A model generated the notes under the pieces. That model saw only the letters and a program-made list of their open reading frames with translations, did no database searches and was not told the DNA's origin. From IMG/VR virus record IMGVR_UViG_3300027759_000044: a stretch of 64,000 nt of DNA. One strand, given 5' to 3'. Positions 2,824 through 43,284 of the stretch are shown piece by piece. This DNA is from a virus. Taxonomy: Duplodnaviria; Caudoviricetes. The stretch's first letter is position 1. Each line of letters opens with the position of its first letter. Both the position numbers and the translations under genes were made by a program.

Positions 2824-3708
2824 ATGAAGAAAATCGCAATAGCGACATTATTGGCCGCAACAACACTAGTTGCAACTGCTCAAGTATCAGTCTCTGGTAA
2901 AATCAGCGAATTTGCTGACAATACTAAAACAGGTGCAACAAGCAAAACAACTCTTGTTACAGATCCAACAAGCAACTTCACATTTTCAGCAAATGAAAAT
3001 ATTGGTGGTGGTTTGAAGGCTCGTGTAGTATTAGATACAAGTTTGGCAGCTAATGATCCAACAGGTGGCTCTGCAACTAAGTTAGGTGATCGTCAATCAA
3101 CAGTCGGTTTAGCTAACAGACTAGGCAGTGTTGACCTAGGTCGCAACTTACATAGTCACTTCTTAGCAGTTACTAACAATGATGCCTTTGGTACATTGTA
3201 TGGTAGTATTGCCGGTGATGTACATAACTTGCGTGGTCTAAGAATGAGCAATGGTACATTCTTTGCATTGACACCAATCAAAGGTGTAACTGCAACCTAT
3301 GACCGCACAAATAATGGTGTAGGTACTGAAGCAACTAGCTATAGTGCATCAGCAACTGTTATGGGTGTTAATGCTGTAGTTGCCCAATATAGTCAAGGTA
3401 CTGAAAAAAGTACTGTATATGGTGGTAGCGCAAAATTAGGCGGTACTCAAGTATTTTACACACATAGTGATGACAAAGGTGTAGGCGCACATAAGGGTGA
3501 TTTGATTGGCGCAAGTCAAGCATTTGGTCCAGTAACTGCTAAAGCAAGTTTTGGTAAAACAAATACCAATGTTAAAGCTTATTCAATGGGTGCTGATTAT
3601 AACTTCAGTAAGCGTACTGCTCTTGGTGTCAACTATCGTAGTGTTGATGCTACAGGTACAGCAAATGACGTAAAACAAGTTGGAGTTGGTGTAACACATC
3701 GCTTCTAA
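2824..3708 (+). CDS. Gram-negative general porin
   Basis: Signal peptide MKKIAIATLLAATTLVATA, alternating beta-strand pattern, G.VDLGR motif, C-terminal ADYNFSKRT...VGVGVTHRF ending in Phe (BAM signal). Confidence 0.85.
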   Translation: MKKIAIATLLAATTLVATAQVSVSGKISEFADNTKTGATSKTTLVTDPTSNFTFSANENIGGGLKARVVLDTSLAANDPTGGSATKLGDRQSTVGLANRLGSVDLGRNLHSHFLAVTNNDAFGTLYGSIAGDVHNLRGLRMSNGTFFALTPIKGVTATYDRTNNGVGTEATSYSASATVMGVNAVVAQYSQGTEKSTVYGGSAKLGGTQVFYTHSDDKGVGAHKGDLIGASQAFGPVTAKASFGKTNTNVKAYSMGADYNFSKRTALGVNYRSVDATGTANDVKQVGVGVTHRF

Positions 3709-10888: not shown

Positions 10889-11989
10889 ATGGCATCAGTA
10901 TCAGACAATCTCACTATCACTAGTGTACAAACTCGCAAGGCAATGCTTAAAGCATTCAAAGCGAAACGCCCGCTTTTCTTGTGGGGCCCGCCCGGTATCG
11001 GTAAATCAGAAGTTGTAGCAGAAGTTACTGAAGAACTAGGTGGCTTTATGATTGACTTGCGTATGGCACAAATGGAGCCTACAGATATTCGCGGTATCCC
11101 ATTCTTTAATAAAGATATTAATAAAATGGACTGGGCGGCACCTGTTGACTTGCCTGACGAGGACCTAGCAAGTCAGTACCCGATCGTTGTTCTATTCTTA
11201 GATGAAATGAATTCAGCAAGTCCCGCAGTACAAGCGGCCGGCTATCAGTTGATTTTGAATCGTAGAGTTGGTAAGTATAAGTTACCTGACAATGTTGTTA
11301 TCGTTGCGGCAGGCAATCGTGACTCTGACAAAGGTGTTACATATCGTATGCCAATGCCCCTCGCTAATCGTTTCTTACACTTAGAAATGAGAGCAGATTT
11401 TACATCATGGCAGAATTGGGCTGTTAACAAAGGTATTCACAAAGACGTTGTGGGTTACTTGTCATTTGCTAAACAAGATTTGTACGATTTTGATGCTAAA
11501 TCGTCAAGTAGAGCATTCGCTACACCTCGCACATGGTGTTTCGTTAGTGATTTGTTGAATGATGAAAACGATACAGATAGCGATACATTGTTCAATTTGA
11601 TTTCAGGTGCTGTTGGTGAAGGTCTTGCTGTTAAGTTTGCGGCACATCGTAAAGTAGCAGGTCGTATGCCCGAACCCTCAGATATTTTGTCAGGTAAAGT
11701 TAAGGACCTCGCAGTTAAAGAAATTTCTGCTATGTACTCACTTACAATTTCAATGTGTTATGAATTGCGTGATGCACTAGAGACAAAGAAAGTTTCTAGT
11801 AAAGAGTTCCACACAATGGCTGATAATTTCTTCAGTTACATTATGGCAAACTTTGAGACTGAACTAGTTGTTATGGGTGCCAAGATTGCGCTTAAGACAT
11901 ACAAGTTACCAATTGAACCTAGTCAGTTGAAGAACTTTGATGACTTTCATAAGAAATACGGCAAGTACATTGTAGACGCAGGTAATTAA
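10889..11989 (+). CDS. MoxR-like AAA+ ATPase
   Basis: Walker A GPPGIGKS, Walker B LFLDEMN, AAGNR, PLANRF, ATPRTW. Confidence 0.85.
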   Translation: MASVSDNLTITSVQTRKAMLKAFKAKRPLFLWGPPGIGKSEVVAEVTEELGGFMIDLRMAQMEPTDIRGIPFFNKDINKMDWAAPVDLPDEDLASQYPIVVLFLDEMNSASPAVQAAGYQLILNRRVGKYKLPDNVVIVAAGNRDSDKGVTYRMPMPLANRFLHLEMRADFTSWQNWAVNKGIHKDVVGYLSFAKQDLYDFDAKSSSRAFATPRTWCFVSDLLNDENDTDSDTLFNLISGAVGEGLAVKFAAHRKVAGRMPEPSDILSGKVKDLAVKEISAMYSLTISMCYELRDALETKKVSSKEFHTMADNFFSYIMANFETELVVMGAKIALKTYKLPIEPSQLKNFDDFHKKYGKYIVDAGN

Positions 11990-11990
11990 T

Positions 11991-12155
11991 ATGGCAACAA
12001 AGATTTTAACTGGCAAGAAGTATTTCTACGCAATGGGTCAAAGTGCCCGTGATCGTGGATTGAACAAAAGTGAAGCGGAGGAACTGTACACTAAAGGTGC
12101 GGATCCTTACGCAAGGATTTACTTTGATAAAGGTTATCGCAAACTATCAATGTAA
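11991..12155 (+). CDS. Hypothetical 54-aa protein (MATKILTGKKYFYAMG...)
   Basis: Fills the gap after the ATPase; below the ORF-track cutoff. Confidence 0.6.
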   Translation: MATKILTGKKYFYAMGQSARDRGLNKSEAEELYTKGADPYARIYFDKGYRKLSM

Positions 12156-12157
12156 TT

Positions 12158-12186
12158 TTGACAGTAAATCACTAGTGTGTTACAAT
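12158..12186 (+). promoter_or_regulatory. Early promoter
   Basis: TTGACAGTAAAT...TACAAT, 17-bp spacer. Confidence 0.75.
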
Positions 12187-12212
12187 ACATACTTAACTAA
12201 CAAAGGACCAAT

Positions 12213-13499
12213 ATGAGTGAAGTAATTAATCCCAGTAAGAAACGTAGTCGCAGTAAGAAATTTGAGAATCTTGTAGGACCTACAGATAGTAAGATTGACC
12301 ATCAAGCACGTGAAAAATTAGTTACCGCACGTATTGGTCTATTGTTGCGTCATAGTTTTTTTGGCAATCTTGCTACACGTATGCAATTGATTAATGCTGA
12401 TCTATGGTGTAGTACAGCGGCAACTGATGGATTGAAATTCTATTACAATAGTCGTTTCATTATGATGTTGAAGCCTAAAGAAGTTGAATTCTTAGTTGGC
12501 CATGAAGTGTTACACGTTGTTTACGATCACATGGGTCGTAGAGGTAATCGTGATCCCGAAATCTGGAACATTGCTGATGACTATGCTGTCAATGCTGATT
12601 TGAAACGTCACAAAGTGGGTGAGTTTATTAAGACAGTACCTTGCTTGTATGAGCAGAAGTATGATGGTAAAGCCGCAGAAGAAATCTATGATGATTTGAT
12701 GAAGAATGTTCAGAAAATCTCTATTGATGATTTACTAGACCAGATGATTGACGATCACATGGATGATGAAGGTGATGGAGATGGTGATCAAGAAGGTGAA
12801 GGTAACAAAAAAGGCAAGCGTCCTTCAATGAGTCCTGAAGAACGTGAACGTGTGCGTCAGGAAGTTAAGCAAGCAATTATCAATGCCGCAAGTAGTGCTG
12901 AAGCAGGTTCATTGCCCTTAGGTGTTGAGCGACTGATTAAACAACATACTAACCCAGTTATGCCTTGGCGTGAACTGATTCAAACTAATTTGACAAGTGC
13001 TATTCGCACAGATTATTCTTGGATGCGTCCCTCACGTAGAGGTTGGCATATGGATGCTATCATGCCCGGCATGAATCCCGGTGAAGAAATTGATGTTGTT
13101 ATTGCTATTGATATGTCAGGTAGTATTAGCAATAGTCAAGCACAAGCATTCTTGGGTGAGATCGGTGGCATGATGAATAGCTTTGATGGTTACAAGGTCC
13201 ACGTATTTTGTTTTGATACTGAGACATATAACCCGAAAGATTTCAGTAGTGAGAACATGGACCTCATTGATGAGTATGAGCCAATGGGCGGTGGTGGTAC
13301 TGACTTTGATTGTATCTTTACGTACTTGAAAGATATCGGTAATGTACCTAAACGATTGATTGTATTCACCGATGGTTATCCTTTTGGTAGTTGGGGTGAT
13401 GCTGATTACTGTGATACAACATGGATCATTCATGGTGACAAAAATCCCAATCCCCCTTTCGGTACTTATGCAATTTATGATGAGCCGGTAACAGCATGA
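12213..13499 (+). CDS. Metallopeptidase-like + vWA domain protein (DUF2201 type), MoxR partner
   Basis: HEVLH zinc motif, acidic linker, MIDAS DMSGS, GGGTDF, FTDG. Confidence 0.85.
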   Translation: MSEVINPSKKRSRSKKFENLVGPTDSKIDHQAREKLVTARIGLLLRHSFFGNLATRMQLINADLWCSTAATDGLKFYYNSRFIMMLKPKEVEFLVGHEVLHVVYDHMGRRGNRDPEIWNIADDYAVNADLKRHKVGEFIKTVPCLYEQKYDGKAAEEIYDDLMKNVQKISIDDLLDQMIDDHMDDEGDGDGDQEGEGNKKGKRPSMSPEERERVRQEVKQAIINAASSAEAGSLPLGVERLIKQHTNPVMPWRELIQTNLTSAIRTDYSWMRPSRRGWHMDAIMPGMNPGEEIDVVIAIDMSGSISNSQAQAFLGEIGGMMNSFDGYKVHVFCFDTETYNPKDFSSENMDLIDEYEPMGGGGTDFDCIFTYLKDIGNVPKRLIVFTDGYPFGSWGDADYCDTTWIIHGDKNPNPPFGTYAIYDEPVTA

Positions 13500-13964: not shown

Positions 13965-14392
13965 TGTATATTGGTACAAGTCTAGGTGGTTGCTTACTTA
14001 GTCTTATGAATAACGAAGTGTCCGAGGATCAGGTTATGTTCATTGTAACACGTACATTTTGTCCTGATTATGATGCCTTCATTCAAGTAGTACAACAATA
14101 TCACGCAGAGGGTAATCCTAATGCCCGTAATCCTGCACAATATGGTTTAGGTGATTATGATTTGAACGAAGTAAAAAATCTAGCTACTAGATTATATTTC
14201 TCAGGTAGAATACACCAACCTAGGGTATTTGATAATGCAGGAAGAACAGCTGGACATTATTATCCTTATAATCATCCAGCAAAGTTAGGTCACGGATTAT
14301 GGATGCAAGTTGTTCCCACTAATGATAACTCTACTCCAGTAGTGATTGAAGCTTGGGAAAAATACAAGATGTTGGACAATTTAACAAAATGA
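13961..14392 (+). CDS. Hypothetical protein
   Basis: ATGA-coupled ORF. Confidence 0.65.
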   Translation: MMYIGTSLGGCLLSLMNNEVSEDQVMFIVTRTFCPDYDAFIQVVQQYHAEGNPNARNPAQYGLGDYDLNEVKNLATRLYFSGRIHQPRVFDNAGRTAGHYYPYNHPAKLGHGLWMQVVPTNDNSTPVVIEAWEKYKMLDNLTK

Positions 14393-14640
14393 TTGAATAT
14401 CAGTTAGATCCTATTACATGGTTTAGTGAAAGAGAGTTGACACATACTCCTAAACATTTTGTAGTAACCTCACATCCATGTACAGAAGAATCTAAACAAT
14501 GGGTTTTAGATAAATTAACTGGTAGATTTAGTATTACATATCCTACAATCAGTAGCAATATATATGAATTAATAAACCCTAGTTGTATTGCCTTTGAAGA
14601 TCCTCAAGAAGCAGTCTTTTATGAACTTAAATGGTCATAA
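14389..14640 (+). CDS. Small protein with C-terminal F.D..EA.F..LKW motif
   Basis: ATGA-coupled start at 14389; ends AFEDPQEAVFYELKWS. Confidence 0.6.
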   Translation: MIEYQLDPITWFSERELTHTPKHFVVTSHPCTEESKQWVLDKLTGRFSITYPTISSNIYELINPSCIAFEDPQEAVFYELKWS

Positions 14641-15760: not shown

Positions 15761-16660
15761 ATGAAACAATACTTAGAACTATTACAAGATATACTAGATA
15801 ACGGAGAAATTAAAGATGACAGAACTGGTGTGGGTACCTATAGTGTTTTTGGACGTCATATTCGCTTTGATTTGCGTAGGGGCTTTCCCGCAGTCACAAC
15901 TAAAAAACTTGCTTGGAAATCTTGCGTTGGTGAACTACTATGGTTTATTGAAGGCAGTAGTGATGAGCGTAGATTGGCAGAGATTACCCATGGTGACAGT
16001 GAAGGAAAAATTACTATCTGGACGCCAAATGCGCTTGCTCCGTATTGGAAACACAAAGCGAAGTTTGAAGGTGATCTCGGACGTGTATATGGGGTACAAT
16101 GGCGCCATTGGAACAAATATCGCACCGAAAAAGACATGGGTAAGGCACACAAAGGTGGTACACGCCTCGCAGTTGACAAGATTGAAGTCGACCAATTGGC
16201 AAATCTCATTAAAGGATTAACTGAAGATCCTAATGGGCGCAGGCACATACTCAGTGCTTGGAACGTGAGCGAGTTAGACGAAATGGCATTGCCCCCTTGT
16301 CACGTTATGAGTCAATTTTATGTCAACAAAAATAAAGAACTTTCTTGCCATATGTATCAGAGATCCGTGGATGTTTTTTTAGGCCTCCCCTTTAATATTG
16401 CTAGTTATGCACTACTTACACATCTACTGGCACATCACTGTGGTTTAAAAGTAGGTGAACTTGTTATCAGTACAGGTGATACACATATCTACAAAGACCA
16501 TATTGAGCAAGTTAAAGAACAATTAACACGTGAACCGTATCCATTGCCTACATTGATGTTAAATGCTTCAAAGACAAACATTTTTGAGATGACAATGGAA
16601 GATATACATTTGGAGAACTATCAAAGTCATGGCCCTATCAAAGCAACAATGGCAGTCTGA
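15761..16660 (+). CDS. thyA: Thymidylate synthase
   Basis: DRTGVGT, RRHILSAWN, ALPPCH (catalytic Cys), YQRSVDVFLGLPFNIASY, GDTHIY. Confidence 0.97.
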   Translation: MKQYLELLQDILDNGEIKDDRTGVGTYSVFGRHIRFDLRRGFPAVTTKKLAWKSCVGELLWFIEGSSDERRLAEITHGDSEGKITIWTPNALAPYWKHKAKFEGDLGRVYGVQWRHWNKYRTEKDMGKAHKGGTRLAVDKIEVDQLANLIKGLTEDPNGRRHILSAWNVSELDEMALPPCHVMSQFYVNKNKELSCHMYQRSVDVFLGLPFNIASYALLTHLLAHHCGLKVGELVISTGDTHIYKDHIEQVKEQLTREPYPLPTLMLNASKTNIFEMTMEDIHLENYQSHGPIKATMAV

Positions 16661-16958
16661 TACTGAACTTAGACCTAAGTATCAGGTACAAGTATCTGAT
16701 ACAGGGAAAGAGATAGTGTCTATCACTCATGTAGTTCACTATATTAAAATGGGTGACGTTGAGGATCCTGATTTGTTTGTGGCACAACCTATATATGAGT
16801 GGCAACAAACGGAAGCTGGTAAATGGATAATGGAAAACTCTAATCCTACACCCAGTTGGCATCGCAACAATGACCTATACAATTATGGTTATGTATATCA
16901 GATTAGAGCATATCTAACACATAAACAATTAACATTTTGGAAATTAAAATATGAGTAA
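16629..16958 (+). CDS. Hypothetical protein
   Basis: Overlaps the thyA end; C-terminus LTFWKLKYE is weakly like the small-protein family. Confidence 0.6.
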   Translation: MALSKQQWQSDTELRPKYQVQVSDTGKEIVSITHVVHYIKMGDVEDPDLFVAQPIYEWQQTEAGKWIMENSNPTPSWHRNNDLYNYGYVYQIRAYLTHKQLTFWKLKYE

Positions 16959-38058: not shown

Positions 38059-38559
38059 ATGCGTATATTAACACTTGAAAACGAATTTTATAATTTAGAG
38101 ACATTGCCGGAGGAAATAGACGACCTTCGCTTTGCGATACTAGATAACAGTAATCCACAAAACGTAGATTATCATTACATCCCATTAATCTTTTTGGAAT
38201 CATTTAACAGTCCTGCACTTGTATTAAAGATCGGGAATCAAACTGTTAAGATGCCAGTAGATTGGCAAATATTGATTGGCGAACAAGAACACGGAGACTT
38301 AGAGACATTGCCTTTAACAAGTATCAATGATAGAGGATTTAATGCGTTTGAGTTTAATCCTTTAACAAGCTTTAGCCCAAGTTTTGTACCAATTGAGATT
38401 GTAGATATTTACCATGATGTGACATGGTATGCACCTAGATTAAAGAATGGCCAATTCTTATGTGTGCCATTAGATGATGGTCCTAAACCAAGATGTGTAT
38501 ATTTTGTAAAAGAGATTAGTCGTAACTGTGAGATTGTAGATTATAGTCAGGCATTCTAA
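38059..38559 (+). CDS. Hypothetical beta-rich protein
   Basis: 166-aa ORF after a promoter. Confidence 0.7.
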   Translation: MRILTLENEFYNLETLPEEIDDLRFAILDNSNPQNVDYHYIPLIFLESFNSPALVLKIGNQTVKMPVDWQILIGEQEHGDLETLPLTSINDRGFNAFEFNPLTSFSPSFVPIEIVDIYHDVTWYAPRLKNGQFLCVPLDDGPKPRCVYFVKEISRNCEIVDYSQAF

Positions 38560-39149
38560 TGGCAACTAAAAAGAGTACTCCTATTGATGAGAAATTTGTA
38601 GCACAAGACTTTGACTTGTTTGATGCTCTTACGGCTATGGACAAGAAAGACTATGCGTATTATGATAGGTTAACAGAAGAACAACAAAAGAAGTTTGTTC
38701 CCTATATGATGACACATTGGATGAGTGCTATCAAAGGTTCAGGAGATGTTCAAGGTTATTACTTGCGTAGTGTTGACTATCACGCAAATAAATATCTATT
38801 CAATGAATATGTACAGAAGCATCCTAAATTGCAATGGTATATGTTATGTGCTAGTAGTCCTGGATTAGGCAAACAATTTCATCAGTGGATTCCTCATTTA
38901 GGTAGTAAAGTAACATCATTAAAAGAGCCTGCTAAAGCAAAAGATATTAAAGAATATTACACTAAAATCTATCCCAAAGTAGATAGCGATGATATTGATG
39001 AGATAGCAAAAGCATTTGTACAAGAACATAAACGTAAATGCTATTTGGCAGAAACATACCCTAACTTAAAACAATCTGATATAGAAGTTCTTAGTCAATT
39101 GGTGACTGAAGAAGATATTAAGCAATATGAAAAAGACCGAGGAAACTAA
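38559..39149 (+). CDS. Possible clamp-loader small subunit (T4 gp62-like)
   Basis: KFVPYMM..WMS and HPKLQW.ML...PG.GKQFHQWI echo gp62 as recalled. Confidence 0.45.
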   Translation: MATKKSTPIDEKFVAQDFDLFDALTAMDKKDYAYYDRLTEEQQKKFVPYMMTHWMSAIKGSGDVQGYYLRSVDYHANKYLFNEYVQKHPKLQWYMLCASSPGLGKQFHQWIPHLGSKVTSLKEPAKAKDIKEYYTKIYPKVDSDDIDEIAKAFVQEHKRKCYLAETYPNLKQSDIEVLSQLVTEEDIKQYEKDRGN

Positions 39150-39825
39150 ATCAGCATATGGATGTGAGTTTTGTAAAGCTACGTTCCAACGTGAAAGTAC
39201 TGTACTTAAACACATATGCGAACCTAAACGTAGATGGTTAGAACGTGACCGTCAAGGTAATCGTGTAGGTTTCCAAGCTTGGTTACAGTTTTATAAGAAG
39301 AATACTGCAGGTACAAAGAATCGTACATATGAAGAATTCATTAAGAATCCTTATTACCTTGCGTTCATTAAGTTTGGTCTATATTGTGTAGAGATTAAAT
39401 GTATCAATGTTAGTAGATTTAGTGATTGGTTATTAAAGAATTCAATTCGCATTGACAATTGGAGACAAGATACTAATTACACAAAGTTCTTGTGTGAATA
39501 TTTGCGTATTGAAGATCCGTTAGATGCGATACATCGTAGTATTGAAATAACAATAGAAAAAGCTGAAGCTGAAAAGATTCAAAGCAGAGATTATTTACGT
39601 TATGGCAATCCTAACAATATATGTTATGAGATTGCTAGAGGACGAATTAGTCCCTGGATGTTATATCAAAGTGATAGTGGTGTCCAATTCTTAAGTACAT
39701 TACGTGATGACCAGCAGAAGATGATTATGGATTACATTAATCCAGAGCAATGGGCATTAAAGTTCAATCGTGATCCTGCGAATGTTAAACAAGTTAAGGA
39801 ATTATTAAATGCCGGCGGCTATTAA
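39127..39825 (+). CDS. Hypothetical protein with N-terminal Zn finger
   Basis: CEFC-x12-HIC. Confidence 0.65.
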   Translation: MKKTEETKSAYGCEFCKATFQRESTVLKHICEPKRRWLERDRQGNRVGFQAWLQFYKKNTAGTKNRTYEEFIKNPYYLAFIKFGLYCVEIKCINVSRFSDWLLKNSIRIDNWRQDTNYTKFLCEYLRIEDPLDAIHRSIEITIEKAEAEKIQSRDYLRYGNPNNICYEIARGRISPWMLYQSDSGVQFLSTLRDDQQKMIMDYINPEQWALKFNRDPANVKQVKELLNAGGY

Positions 39826-40465
39826 AATACCAAAAACTATTCACATAGTTTGGATAGGTGACGAATCTAAAATACCTAGTGATTGTATTAAAACTTGGGT
39901 CGATCTTAATACTACCTGGATAGTTAAAGTCTGGGGTAACACTGAATATTATAACTATCCATGGAGAAATCGAGAGGCTATGGACAAACTTTGGGATGAT
40001 GACAAGTTTGAAATTAGTCGTAAGAGTGGTATTGCTGATATTATGCGCTATGAAATTTTATACAACGAGGGTGGATTTTGTATTGATGCCGATTCAACAT
40101 GTATCAAACCATTAGAAGATTGGTTATTTGACGCAGAAGCTTGTGCTGGATGGGAAAATGAAACAGCGCGGCCAGGACTTATTGCTGTTGGATACATGGC
40201 ATCAATTCCCAATAATTTATTTTTTAACAGAATTATTGATGAAATATATAACGATCCTGATATTACAGATAATTTACCTTGGATCAAAACCGGACCACTT
40301 AGATTAACCAACGCATATAATTCGCTAAAATACAATAATCTAAAAATCTGGCCATCACACTATTTTATACCAACTCACTATACCGGGATATCCCATACAG
40401 GAAATGGTCCGATATTTGGTATACAAGAGTGGATGACTACATTTGCTTCAGCAAGGAATTATTAA
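39809..40465 (+). CDS. DXD glycosyltransferase (Gly_transf_sug/OCH1-like)
   Basis: IPKTIHIVWIG, ADIMRYEILYNEGGFCIDAD, TGP..LT. Confidence 0.88.
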   Translation: MPAAIKIPKTIHIVWIGDESKIPSDCIKTWVDLNTTWIVKVWGNTEYYNYPWRNREAMDKLWDDDKFEISRKSGIADIMRYEILYNEGGFCIDADSTCIKPLEDWLFDAEACAGWENETARPGLIAVGYMASIPNNLFFNRIIDEIYNDPDITDNLPWIKTGPLRLTNAYNSLKYNNLKIWPSHYFIPTHYTGISHTGNGPIFGIQEWMTTFASARNY

Positions 40466-40660
40466 ATGTCGGCGGGTACTAGAGTTCGTATATCCTGGAA
40501 AAAGGGAGATATAATCGATTGGAATGAAACCTGTGCCTGGGTAGTAGAACAATTTGGATTACCCGGTGACAAGTTTGAAACACATGCTACTGAAGATTAT
40601 ATGGATTTTTACTTCAAAGATGAAAAAGATGCCATTCTATTTGAGTTGACCTGTGGCTGA
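40466..40660 (+). CDS. Small paralogue family member
   Basis: Ends FYFKDEKDAILFELTCG. Confidence 0.65.
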   Translation: MSAGTRVRISWKKGDIIDWNETCAWVVEQFGLPGDKFETHATEDYMDFYFKDEKDAILFELTCG

Positions 40661-40868
40661 CGTTATCTTATATATTACTGCTAAAAGAACTATGGAAATA
40701 GGACATGAGTTACGAAACATGGGTTATGTTCAAGGAGTTGATTTTGATTATGCTTATTACCAAGAAAAATATGACAATTTTAGCCATGAACCTATTGTAA
40801 AACGACATGCAAGGTTTACTTTTTACAATGATAGTAATGCTAGTTACTTTGCACTAAAATGGCAATGA
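40653..40868 (+). CDS. Small paralogue family member
   Basis: Ends FTFYNDSNASYFALKWQ. Confidence 0.65.
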   Translation: MADVILYITAKRTMEIGHELRNMGYVQGVDFDYAYYQEKYDNFSHEPIVKRHARFTFYNDSNASYFALKWQ

Positions 40869-41101
40869 TAATTGAACATTATGATTATGCTGTAGGTTGG
40901 GAAAATACTAAACCCGGCTGGCATGAATGTACTGTACATGTTAAACATCTTGACAAATATAATGAAATAGTTAAATGGTTAGAAACTAATATAGGTAAAC
41001 ATGAAAGACATTGTAGATGGGGCATAACTGATGATGACCTAATCAGCTTTAAGTTTAGATATGAAAAAGATTACATTTTGTTTACGTTGAGGTGGAGTTG
41101 A
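40859..41101 (+). CDS. Small paralogue family member
   Basis: Ends FKFRYEKDYILFTLRWS. Confidence 0.65.
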   Translation: MAMIIEHYDYAVGWENTKPGWHECTVHVKHLDKYNEIVKWLETNIGKHERHCRWGITDDDLISFKFRYEKDYILFTLRWS

Positions 41102-41367
41102 TGGCATCAATACCTCAAATACAGGATTATGATGATGACGATCCAAATATAGAACAACGTAAAAATCGTTGGAATTATTGGGAAGCATTGAAAAAAGTTC
41201 GTAAAGAATATATGGCACAGAATAAAGAGTTTGACGCATATGATTTTGAGGATTACCTTACTGGACAATATGGGTTAAAAATGAACATAGTTAATGGTAA
41301 CATAACTGACGGTTATGAGATTGTTGACGAAAAGAAGTATCTAATATTTTTATTAAAATTCCAATGA
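41101..41367 (+). CDS. Small paralogue family member
   Basis: Ends IVDEKKYLIFLLKFQ; ATG 41101. Confidence 0.6.
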   Translation: MASIPQIQDYDDDDPNIEQRKNRWNYWEALKKVRKEYMAQNKEFDAYDFEDYLTGQYGLKMNIVNGNITDGYEIVDEKKYLIFLLKFQ

Positions 41368-41720
41368 ATCAATTATTTCCCATAACCTCTGTACAAAACG
41401 ATAAATTTCTAGTATCATGGCCTAAATGGGAGAACATCCGACAGTTTGACACAAAGAAAAGATTATTGGCTGTGTTGTTTGCTGATATCGGTAGTGATGA
41501 AGTTGGTATTGCAATAATGGCTGGTGTACTAAGTGGTGGAGAACTAGATGTTATGTGGATTAATTCAAACACTTGGGCACAAGATGTTAACGGCGACTAT
41601 GCTAGATACCTAGAAGATATGTATGATATCAAAGGCGTAGTATTTAATAGTGAAGATGAAGCAACAAAGTTTCAAGATTACTTAGAGAAGAAATATATTT
41701 GGAAAACATTACAGGCATAA
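41364..41720 (+). CDS. Hypothetical protein, possible distant family member
   Basis: VFNSEDEATKF near the C-terminus. Confidence 0.6.
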   Translation: MNQLFPITSVQNDKFLVSWPKWENIRQFDTKKRLLAVLFADIGSDEVGIAIMAGVLSGGELDVMWINSNTWAQDVNGDYARYLEDMYDIKGVVFNSEDEATKFQDYLEKKYIWKTLQA

Positions 41721-41721
41721 T

Positions 41722-42264
41722 ATGGCACAAGATATAATGATTGATATGGAAACGCTTGACACAAGTCCTGATTGTGTTATACTAACTATTGGCGCAGTAA
41801 GATTTGATCCTAAATGTAGTGGAGTTGTTGAGCGATTAGAATTGCGACCTACAATTGAAGAACAAACAGAAATTTATAATAGGAGTATAAATGAAGATAC
41901 ATTACGATGGTGGAGTGAGCAAAGTCCTGAAGCTCTTGAAGAGGCTATGGGAGAAACTGGACGAATTCCGTTTAGAGAATGTATGGAGATACTTTATAAG
42001 TTTTGTTGGAATCGTCGTGCTGTGTGGAGTAATGGTGCATCATTTGACGTGGTTGTGGCAGAGTCGGCCTGGAGAAATCTTGAAATGCGAACCCCGTGGC
42101 CTTTTTATACAGTCAGAGATACTCGTACCTTGTATGAGATTGCCGGAGTCAAATTAAAAGATGGCGGGCATGTCACCAGTCATAAAGCAGTAGAAGATGC
42201 TGAACGACAAGCCATTGTTGTACAAAAAGCGTATACCAAATTAGGATTAAGTAATGAGAATTGA
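41722..42264 (+). CDS. DEDDh 3'-5' exonuclease
   Basis: IDMET, NGASFD, RDTRT, HKAVEDA. Confidence 0.88.
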   Translation: MAQDIMIDMETLDTSPDCVILTIGAVRFDPKCSGVVERLELRPTIEEQTEIYNRSINEDTLRWWSEQSPEALEEAMGETGRIPFRECMEILYKFCWNRRAVWSNGASFDVVVAESAWRNLEMRTPWPFYTVRDTRTLYEIAGVKLKDGGHVTSHKAVEDAERQAIVVQKAYTKLGLSNEN

Positions 42265-42817
42265 TAGTGATATTGACATTGACTTCGGAGATAGAGATAC
42301 TCTATTAAAATTAATACCTCACACAAGAGCGGCAATGCGTAATGTTAAGCCTATACGTAATCATGCCACTGGAGTTTATATTACTGACGTACCATATGAT
42401 CCAGTACACAATATAGCAAGTATTGACTATACTTCCGCAGATAAACGTGGATATTTCAAATTAGATTTATTGAACGTTCATGTTTATAATCAGGTTCGTG
42501 ATGAAGCACATCTTATAGAATTGATGAGAGAACCCAAATGGAGTAAACTTAAAGATCCTGTATTTGTAGAAAAATTGATTCATTTGAATAATCAGTACTA
42601 TAATCTACAAAAGATGCGAGAACCAGTAGATAGTATTCCTAGATTAGCTATGTTTTTAGCTGTTATTCGCCCCGGTAAAAAGCATCTAATAGGTAAACAA
42701 TGGAGTGATATTGCTAAAACTGTATGGGATAAGGGAACTGATGGATATACTTTTAAGAAGTCACATGCCATAAGTTATTCATGGCTTGTTGCAGTTCATA
42801 TGAATTTGTTAGGGTAA
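42254..42817 (+). CDS. Miniature DNA polymerase III alpha (DnaE)-like protein
   Basis: SDIDIDF, HATGVYI, GYFKLDLL, LAVIRPG and GYTFKKSHAISY occur in DnaE order within 187 aa. Confidence 0.8.
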   Translation: MRIDSDIDIDFGDRDTLLKLIPHTRAAMRNVKPIRNHATGVYITDVPYDPVHNIASIDYTSADKRGYFKLDLLNVHVYNQVRDEAHLIELMREPKWSKLKDPVFVEKLIHLNNQYYNLQKMREPVDSIPRLAMFLAVIRPGKKHLIGKQWSDIAKTVWDKGTDGYTFKKSHAISYSWLVAVHMNLLG

Positions 42818-43188
42818 ACGTTTTACTAAAGTAATACTACGGCGTTTACTTCTACGTTTGTTTAATTCAATTATACTACATACAGGACCATGTAGTATTG
42901 TGAGACTTTTGTTATTAAACGTTCTAATATAGGGCCTAAAGATACTCCATTCGTCTTTTAAAAATAGATTTATGGGGATTAATCTATTAGATTCCCACCA
43001 CCAAACATCTCCTAGTTCTAGGAATTTCTCTTTAATTACATTATCTATTATAGCACCGTAGTCGTATATAGTGGTAACTATATCGTCTCGGTTCTGGACA
43101 ATTCCCACATAATCCTGATTTGCGTAGGAGCAAATAGTTATGAAGGGATGATTTTCGCCTAAGCGTTTAAAAAACTCGTTTTGTATCA
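42809..43188 (-). CDS. Hypothetical protein
   Basis: Minus-strand ORF with ATAAATA upstream; start placed at MIQNEFF. Confidence 0.65.
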
Positions 43189-43284
43189 TTAAAATTATAG
43201 TCTCGGATATATTTATCACCCTTCCCAAACCATTAATAAAATAATATATATGGGAGACTAAATACACAATAGGAGATTACATTT

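Follow-up and report, generated by a model that had tools for sequence, protein, structure and literature searches.

The tandem array of small genes at positions 40466-41720 of the window (a 64,000-nt stretch of viral DNA, analysed as a whole) is a local cluster of old paralogues belonging to a large, undescribed, phage-specific domain family. Genes A and C of the array, less firmly gene B, and a dispersed gene at 14389-14640 share a domain of about 60 residues with the element order beta-alpha-beta-beta-alpha. The family is very large and has no name, and some jumbo phages carry tens of its copies. The expansion of small domains in jumbo phages is already known from the zinc ribbons of Bacillus phage G (PMC7824862); new here are a quantified test of the Shine-Dalgarno (SD) signal in the tail of the domain, with an internal control, a genome-specific signal in its second helix, and the cultured phages found to carry copies.

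Array genes and their genomic slot

The window comes from an uncultured jumbo phage similar to Paride and Atu_ph07. Its ssDNA-binding protein is 48% identical to that of the Pseudomonas phages Paride/PA5oct and 44% to that of Atu_ph07, and these relatives belong to group 2.2 of Iyer et al. 2021 (PMC7824862), jumbo phages whose minimal Pol III alpha is split. Gene A was likewise called on a contig of 348,724 bp. Elsewhere, the window encodes a Gram-negative porin (2824-3708; Porin_4, E 8e-22), which points to a proteobacterial host, and an AAA+ ATPase followed by a vWA/metallopeptidase-like gene (10889-13499, both read from the sequence only); this gene pair resembles the MoxR-vWA pair of group 2.2 jumbo phages (PMC7824862).

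As the initial annotation had reported, five small open reading frames abut or overlap within 40466-41720, and the C-termini that it quoted for A-D and for 14389-14640 are correct. All of them lie on the plus strand: A (40466..40660, 64 aa), B (40653..40868, 71 aa, with a GTG start inside the tail of A), C (40859..41101, 80 aa, or 78 aa from 40865, with an N-terminal extension), D (41101..41367, 88 aa), and E (41364..41720, 118 aa). On the same strand are the dispersed member (14389..14640, 83 aa), which is syntenic in related phages, and a gene of 109 aa located after the thymidylate synthase (16629..16958). Of 83 genes, four adjacent ones carry the tail F-x-L-[KRT]-[WFC]-x-stop, whereas composition predicts about 0.002 per window; the pattern was picked after the data had been seen.

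Family membership was evaluated with a profile built from 154 sequences, from which the relatives of the window proteins had been removed (best decoy E-value, 0.39). This check, proposed in the initial annotation, recovered A (1e-10), C (5e-14), B (8e-4), and the gene at 14389 (2e-3) above the decoys, and the last of these, already named as a dispersed copy, reached a profile probability of 85%. In A and C, the profile matches 56-60 columns, among them helix 1 and its near-invariant Trp, and the alignment of A with C spans 42 columns. The divergent paralogues first recognized by their shared tail are real for A, C, and B, but the similarity involves the whole domain and not only the tail. Gene B represents a distinct subfamily for which the profile (probability 94%) aligns the tail only, and by eye its homologues show the same element order.

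Gene D appears as a divergent branch (HMM E 2.3, profile probability 6%), with an acidic N-terminus and, to judge from the sequence, an extra helix replacing strand 1; intermediate sequences in other arrays (L195, L183, L199, and L179) link it to the family, of which it is probably a member. Gene E is a conserved neighbour (HMM E 2.3, profile probability 3.5%) whose motif, contrary to what had been annotated, is not C-terminal. Since it has an alpha/beta model of its own, with no top BFVD hits in common with the model of gene A, its place in the family is doubtful. The gene at 16629, suggested earlier as a possible copy, was missed by the HMM and is tied to the family by a weak link only (probability 5.5%). 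It belongs to a conserved subfamily of its own, marked by the motif G-D-V-E-D-P-D-L and found in several arrays of other phages, which may be a distant branch of the family. The probabilities of D, E, and 16629 (3.5-6%) compare with values of at most 0.4% for unrelated neighbours.

The array sits within the replication gene cluster. Its upstream edge is a conserved core gene (phrog_11058; 39127..39825, plus strand) and its downstream edge, coupled to the array, is an Rv2179c-like 3'-5' exonuclease with a DNA polymerase fragment (phrog_11778; 41722..42817, plus strand). In Paride, the polymerase gene directly follows the syntenic core gene, which marks the array as an accessory element inserted into a core operon. 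The window also has a glycosyltransferase gene (39809..40465, plus strand) between the core gene and A; it is absent from the 80 closest loci and bracketed by a 29-nt direct repeat (39796-39824 and 40453-40481, 90% identical, 657 nt apart). In relatives without this gene, the core gene is coupled directly to A, indicating a precise insertion at the gene junction.

The order A-B-C-D-E is kept in the 80 related viral loci wherever contigs span the array, apart from one small group in which D and E are missing. Further motif-bearing genes (up to a few) or cargo enzymes sit between the array genes of these relatives. The slot contains 2-10 family members across 59 distinct configurations, and the same upstream core gene was found in 42/86 loci, a set obtained mostly from a degenerate DNA motif scan. 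Cargo genes of 220-515 aa lie between family members in L001, L022, L042, L043, L048, and L063; the slot thus also accepts enzymes. Promoter and terminator scans remained at chance level, with no terminator within the array. In the window, no DNA repeats were found between the paralogues, and the duplications are therefore old. A contig otherwise matching the array region (L082, 10400-10522) carries a 119-bp tandem duplication of the tail region of B, which creates a 40-aa chimera of the start of C and the tail of B; it may represent real array growth in action or an assembly error.

The neighbouring genes gave no functional clue beyond the replication cluster. The gene at 38559 was considered as a T4 gp62-like clamp-loader subunit, an identity that is doubtful at a profile probability of only 1.7%. 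The real gene of the region 42809-43267 probably lies on the minus strand, in line with its call in L081 and its annotation in Paride; a 126-aa frame from L210, at the matching place, hits phrog_11637 on a strand in conflict with that call.

Fold, size and range of the family

The model of gene A (E5-10 H19-30 E37-41 E45-50 H53-63; pLDDT 68, moderate confidence) predicts a ferredoxin-like sandwich without the fourth strand. The conserved motif, F-x-F...D-A-x-x-F-x-L-[RK]-W, corresponds to strand 3 plus helix 2, and the near-invariant Trp of helix 1 is conserved alongside it. The protein ends one residue after the tail Trp in 106/132 representatives, and the repeat protein P0246 (207 aa) likely continues past helix 2 with a strand.

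The best structural matches (TM up to 0.83 in BFVD, up to 0.84 when the Atlas is included) are uncharacterised small phage proteins. Among solved structures, secretin N (Z 5.5-6.5), ACT, RRM, and designed ferredoxin-like domains are tied at Z 5-6.5, which indicates a common architecture and not a function, and Foldseek on the PDB gave no match at E 0.001. More specifically, the first five elements superpose on those of the calcipressin RRM (PDB 1wey) and the TyrA ACT domain (5uyy) with Z 5.9-6.3 and rmsd 2.2-2.7 over 60 residues, and the F-x5-A spacing at the strand 3-helix 2 transition resembles that of RRM, ACT, and ferredoxin-like domains in general. Unlike these domains, stand-alone family members lack the fourth strand, share 8-12% identity with them, and have no sequence match in Pfam or PDB. 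The ring-building secretin domains N1-N3 (8co1, 3gr5, and 3oss) have the same five-element order (Z 5.5-6.4), but identity is 3-5%, and the family proteins stand alone and show no hint of a signal peptide or of a membrane domain.

The family has no counterpart in the resources searched. Credible Pfam or PHROGs hits were found neither for the seven proteins of the window nor for 144 members of the family, the Atlas neighbours had no common Pfam 38.1 family, no credible PDB sequence match was obtained for the family, and literature searches found no description of it.

A single-pass profile search retrieved 3,225 clusters at 50% identity. The degenerate DNA motif pattern matched more than 120 viral contigs and none of 185,579 prokaryote genomes (one genome per species), and on these matches the family looks phage-only. 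The initial annotation had proposed an expanded family, which is borne out, and a count of copies per genome: near-complete uncultured genomes contain 7-31 matches each, and the cultured Sinorhizobium phage Phosso (PV764938) has about 55 over the 69 kb covered, without any decoy hits. Atu_ph07 has at least 8 copies and Paride at least 3-4, and the homologues in PA5oct are gp247, gp274, and gp275, none of which is flagged as a virion protein in the record. A coarse first-look search found no copies in RaK2, XaC1, Vibrio 2.275.O, or T4. The search for longer or fused forms, a weak test, returned one 160-aa protein and no fusion to a functional domain among longer proteins. Tandem two-domain proteins exist (P0174 and P0288).

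A comparable case is Bacillus phage G, where a lineage-specific small-domain expansion comprises about 35 zinc-ribbon copies (Iyer et al. 2021, PMC7824862). Both are sets of many diverged copies of one small domain in a jumbo phage, with function unassigned. The present family differs in its unrelated fold, which lacks Cys ligands, in its occurrence across many group 2.2-like phages and not in a single lineage, and in a 3' end that doubles as the ribosome-binding site of the next gene.

Dual coding of the tail and selection on the domain

The tail is dual-coded: the codons for Leu-Arg-Trp-x-stop are often also the SD site and start of the next gene. Indeed, the tail Arg codon is AGG in 80/127 lineages (50% clusters with a tail Arg), versus 3/48 Arg-Trp pairs inside the domain (p about 1e-12) and 5/127 in long genes of the same loci (p about 1e-25). 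Downstream of AGG tails, the start of the following gene lies 8 or 11 bases further along in 67/80 cases, and the pairing energy of tails with the anti-SD is −7.2 kcal/mol versus −4.3 kcal/mol for synonymous randomisations. Of 161 tails, 151 terminate one residue after Trp.

Within the window, the clear SD case is the C-D junction (41089..41103, plus strand), where GAGGTGGAG lies within the Leu-Arg-Trp-Ser codons of C and is followed by a TGATG stop/start overlap with D; its anti-SD pairing is −10.3 kcal/mol. In genes A and B, by contrast, the start codon of the following gene lies within the tail. The copies of Phosso mostly keep F-x-L without an AGG-type SD, and usually end a few residues later, which argues for a constraint also at the protein level. 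Those of Paride and Atu_ph07, too, keep the fold and F-x-L without this signal.

The constancy of the tail is thus explained in part by its coding for the ribosome-binding site of the next gene. A copy ending in such a site could be inserted or duplicated in a coupled replication operon without loss of downstream translation. Insertion free of polar effects, which we infer, would explain the arrays as well as the constant end point one residue past Trp, and the double role of the conserved protein end offers a concrete route to array growth.

Then, we evaluated selection on the array genes. The dN/dS values are 0.14 for A, 0.30 for B, 0.23 for C, 0.09 for D, and 0.29 for E, with 0.11-0.23 for the flanking core genes; orthologue lines are under ordinary purifying selection. 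The initial annotation had described a constant tail with variable bodies. This holds among paralogues, whose bodies are about 16% identical while the last helix is fixed, but not among orthologues, where the low dN/dS means bodies that are old and conserved, not hypervariable.

Across 21 genomes, with close pairs excluded, paralogue bodies are equally alike within and between genomes (16% vs 16%). Conversely, the sharing of residues at positions 57/58/60 of helix 2 is 37% within genomes versus 15% between them, or 24% versus 14% when Phosso is left out, above all 100 permutations; the window's own copies are not uniform at these positions. In the same 21 genomes, helix 1, strands 1 and 3, and the synonymous tail codons showed no within-genome sharing. 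DNA-level homogenisation of the tails was considered and is unsupported, as synonymous codons are unshared within genomes. The simplest functional reading of the helix-2 sharing would be a surface matched to one partner per phage; alternatively, slowly evolving sites could have retained the ancestry of genome-specific expansions.

Possible functions of the paralogues

We tentatively favour, at somewhat less than even confidence, a reading in which the paralogues are small adaptors or modulators that bind proteins: they would use helix 2 to dock on a shared partner, differ elsewhere, and be expressed with the replication operon. Hydrophobic residues occupy two opposite faces of helix 2. The face formed by Ala56, Phe59, and Trp63 would pack on the core, and the other one, with position 58 (hydrophobic in 92%) and Leu61 (a Leu in 94%), is probably exposed according to the helical wheel and to the geometry of the RRM fold. 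This second face, with its neighbours, may dock on a partner common to the paralogues of one phage, either a phage or a host protein, and the divergent sheet and loops could provide for a second partner or condition specific to each paralogue. Docking, partner, and targets are here inferred. The docking motif for one hub, as first annotated, survives in the three helix positions common within a genome; the tail itself is strand 3 plus helix 2 of the domain and not an appended element. The homodimer prediction for gene A (score 0.02) carries no weight either way.

A wider version of this scheme is possible but rather doubtful. Dozens of diverged modules per genome would form a phage-wide set of plug-in adaptors, docking by a genome-specific C-terminal helix on one hub (candidates are a phage or host protease, a chaperone, or a part of the replisome) and turning variable faces to their targets, with the 3' translation signal serving to slot in new copies.

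It is rather unlikely that the paralogues are independent single-domain inhibitors of different host or defence proteins, with a tail that is only structure plus ribosome-binding site and no hub. Such a function would suit small, acidic members, patchily gained and lost, with 2-10 copies in the same slot and none found by the coarse first-look search in RaK2, XaC1, and T4; furthermore, most motif residues fit a generic strand 3-helix 2 ferredoxin-like pattern. However, conservation of the orthologues matches that of core replication genes, the 80 loci show a fixed gene order, and the genome-specific sharing in helix 2 would be left unexplained unless it is ancestry. An anti-defence role was also raised in the initial annotation; Foldseek on the PDB and the PDB sequence search found no similarity to solved anti-defence proteins.

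The genome-specific helix-2 surfaces would fit equally if the common partner were the family itself, with the paralogues as subunits of a shared homo- or hetero-oligomer such as a ring or filament. We consider this improbable. Secretin N domains, of the same topology, come up repeatedly among the top structural matches (Z up to 6.5), tandem two-domain proteins could be read in the same sense, and coupled translation suits a stoichiometric assembly. Nevertheless, Z values below 8 mean a common arrangement only, copy number is free, from 3 to more than 50, with many copies dispersed, and the virion proteome annotation flags none of the three PA5oct homologues.

More improbable still are RRM-like binders of RNA or ssDNA, acting as RegA-like translational regulators with each paralogue reading a different sequence. 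T4 RegA is a small alpha/beta protein of RRM-type fold (PMC7824862). Its gene immediately precedes the polymerase gene in the replication cluster, with gene 62 on its other side, a position resembling that of the array, and the tied structural matches include RRM and KH domains (Z 5-6). Unlike the family, RegA (PF01818) is single-copy and has 122 aa, and a relationship was rejected at hhalign probabilities of 0.1-2.5% for the family and each subfamily. Furthermore, the domains are neutral to acidic (median net charge −1, with −6 for gene A, and pI >8 in only 24%), and the gene A model, with three strands and an end at helix 2, lacks the four-strand RRM topology. The presumed exposed sheet positions are not conserved: in strand 3, positions 47 and 49 vary, where RNP1/RNP2 would have conserved aromatic and basic residues.

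Finally, near-neutral cassettes of little protein function, spreading by means of a ready-made 3' ribosome-binding site, would agree with the strong SD signal in the tail and the L082 duplication in a near-identical contig, but they are highly improbable, being largely refuted by the purifying selection on every array gene (dN/dS 0.09-0.30) and by the fold and F-x-L kept in Phosso, Paride, and Atu_ph07 without an AGG-type SD.

As to the favoured docking on a shared partner, the copies in cultured Phosso (about 55), Atu_ph07 (at least 8), and PA5oct/Paride (at least 3) make the hub hypothesis directly testable. Two further observations are possible functional leads: Phosso gene 569 (L292, 676-1686) encodes a 336-aa protein with the domain near its C-terminus, and a cluster of bacterial DnaJ-domain proteins in the Atlas matches the fold with a TM of 0.77.
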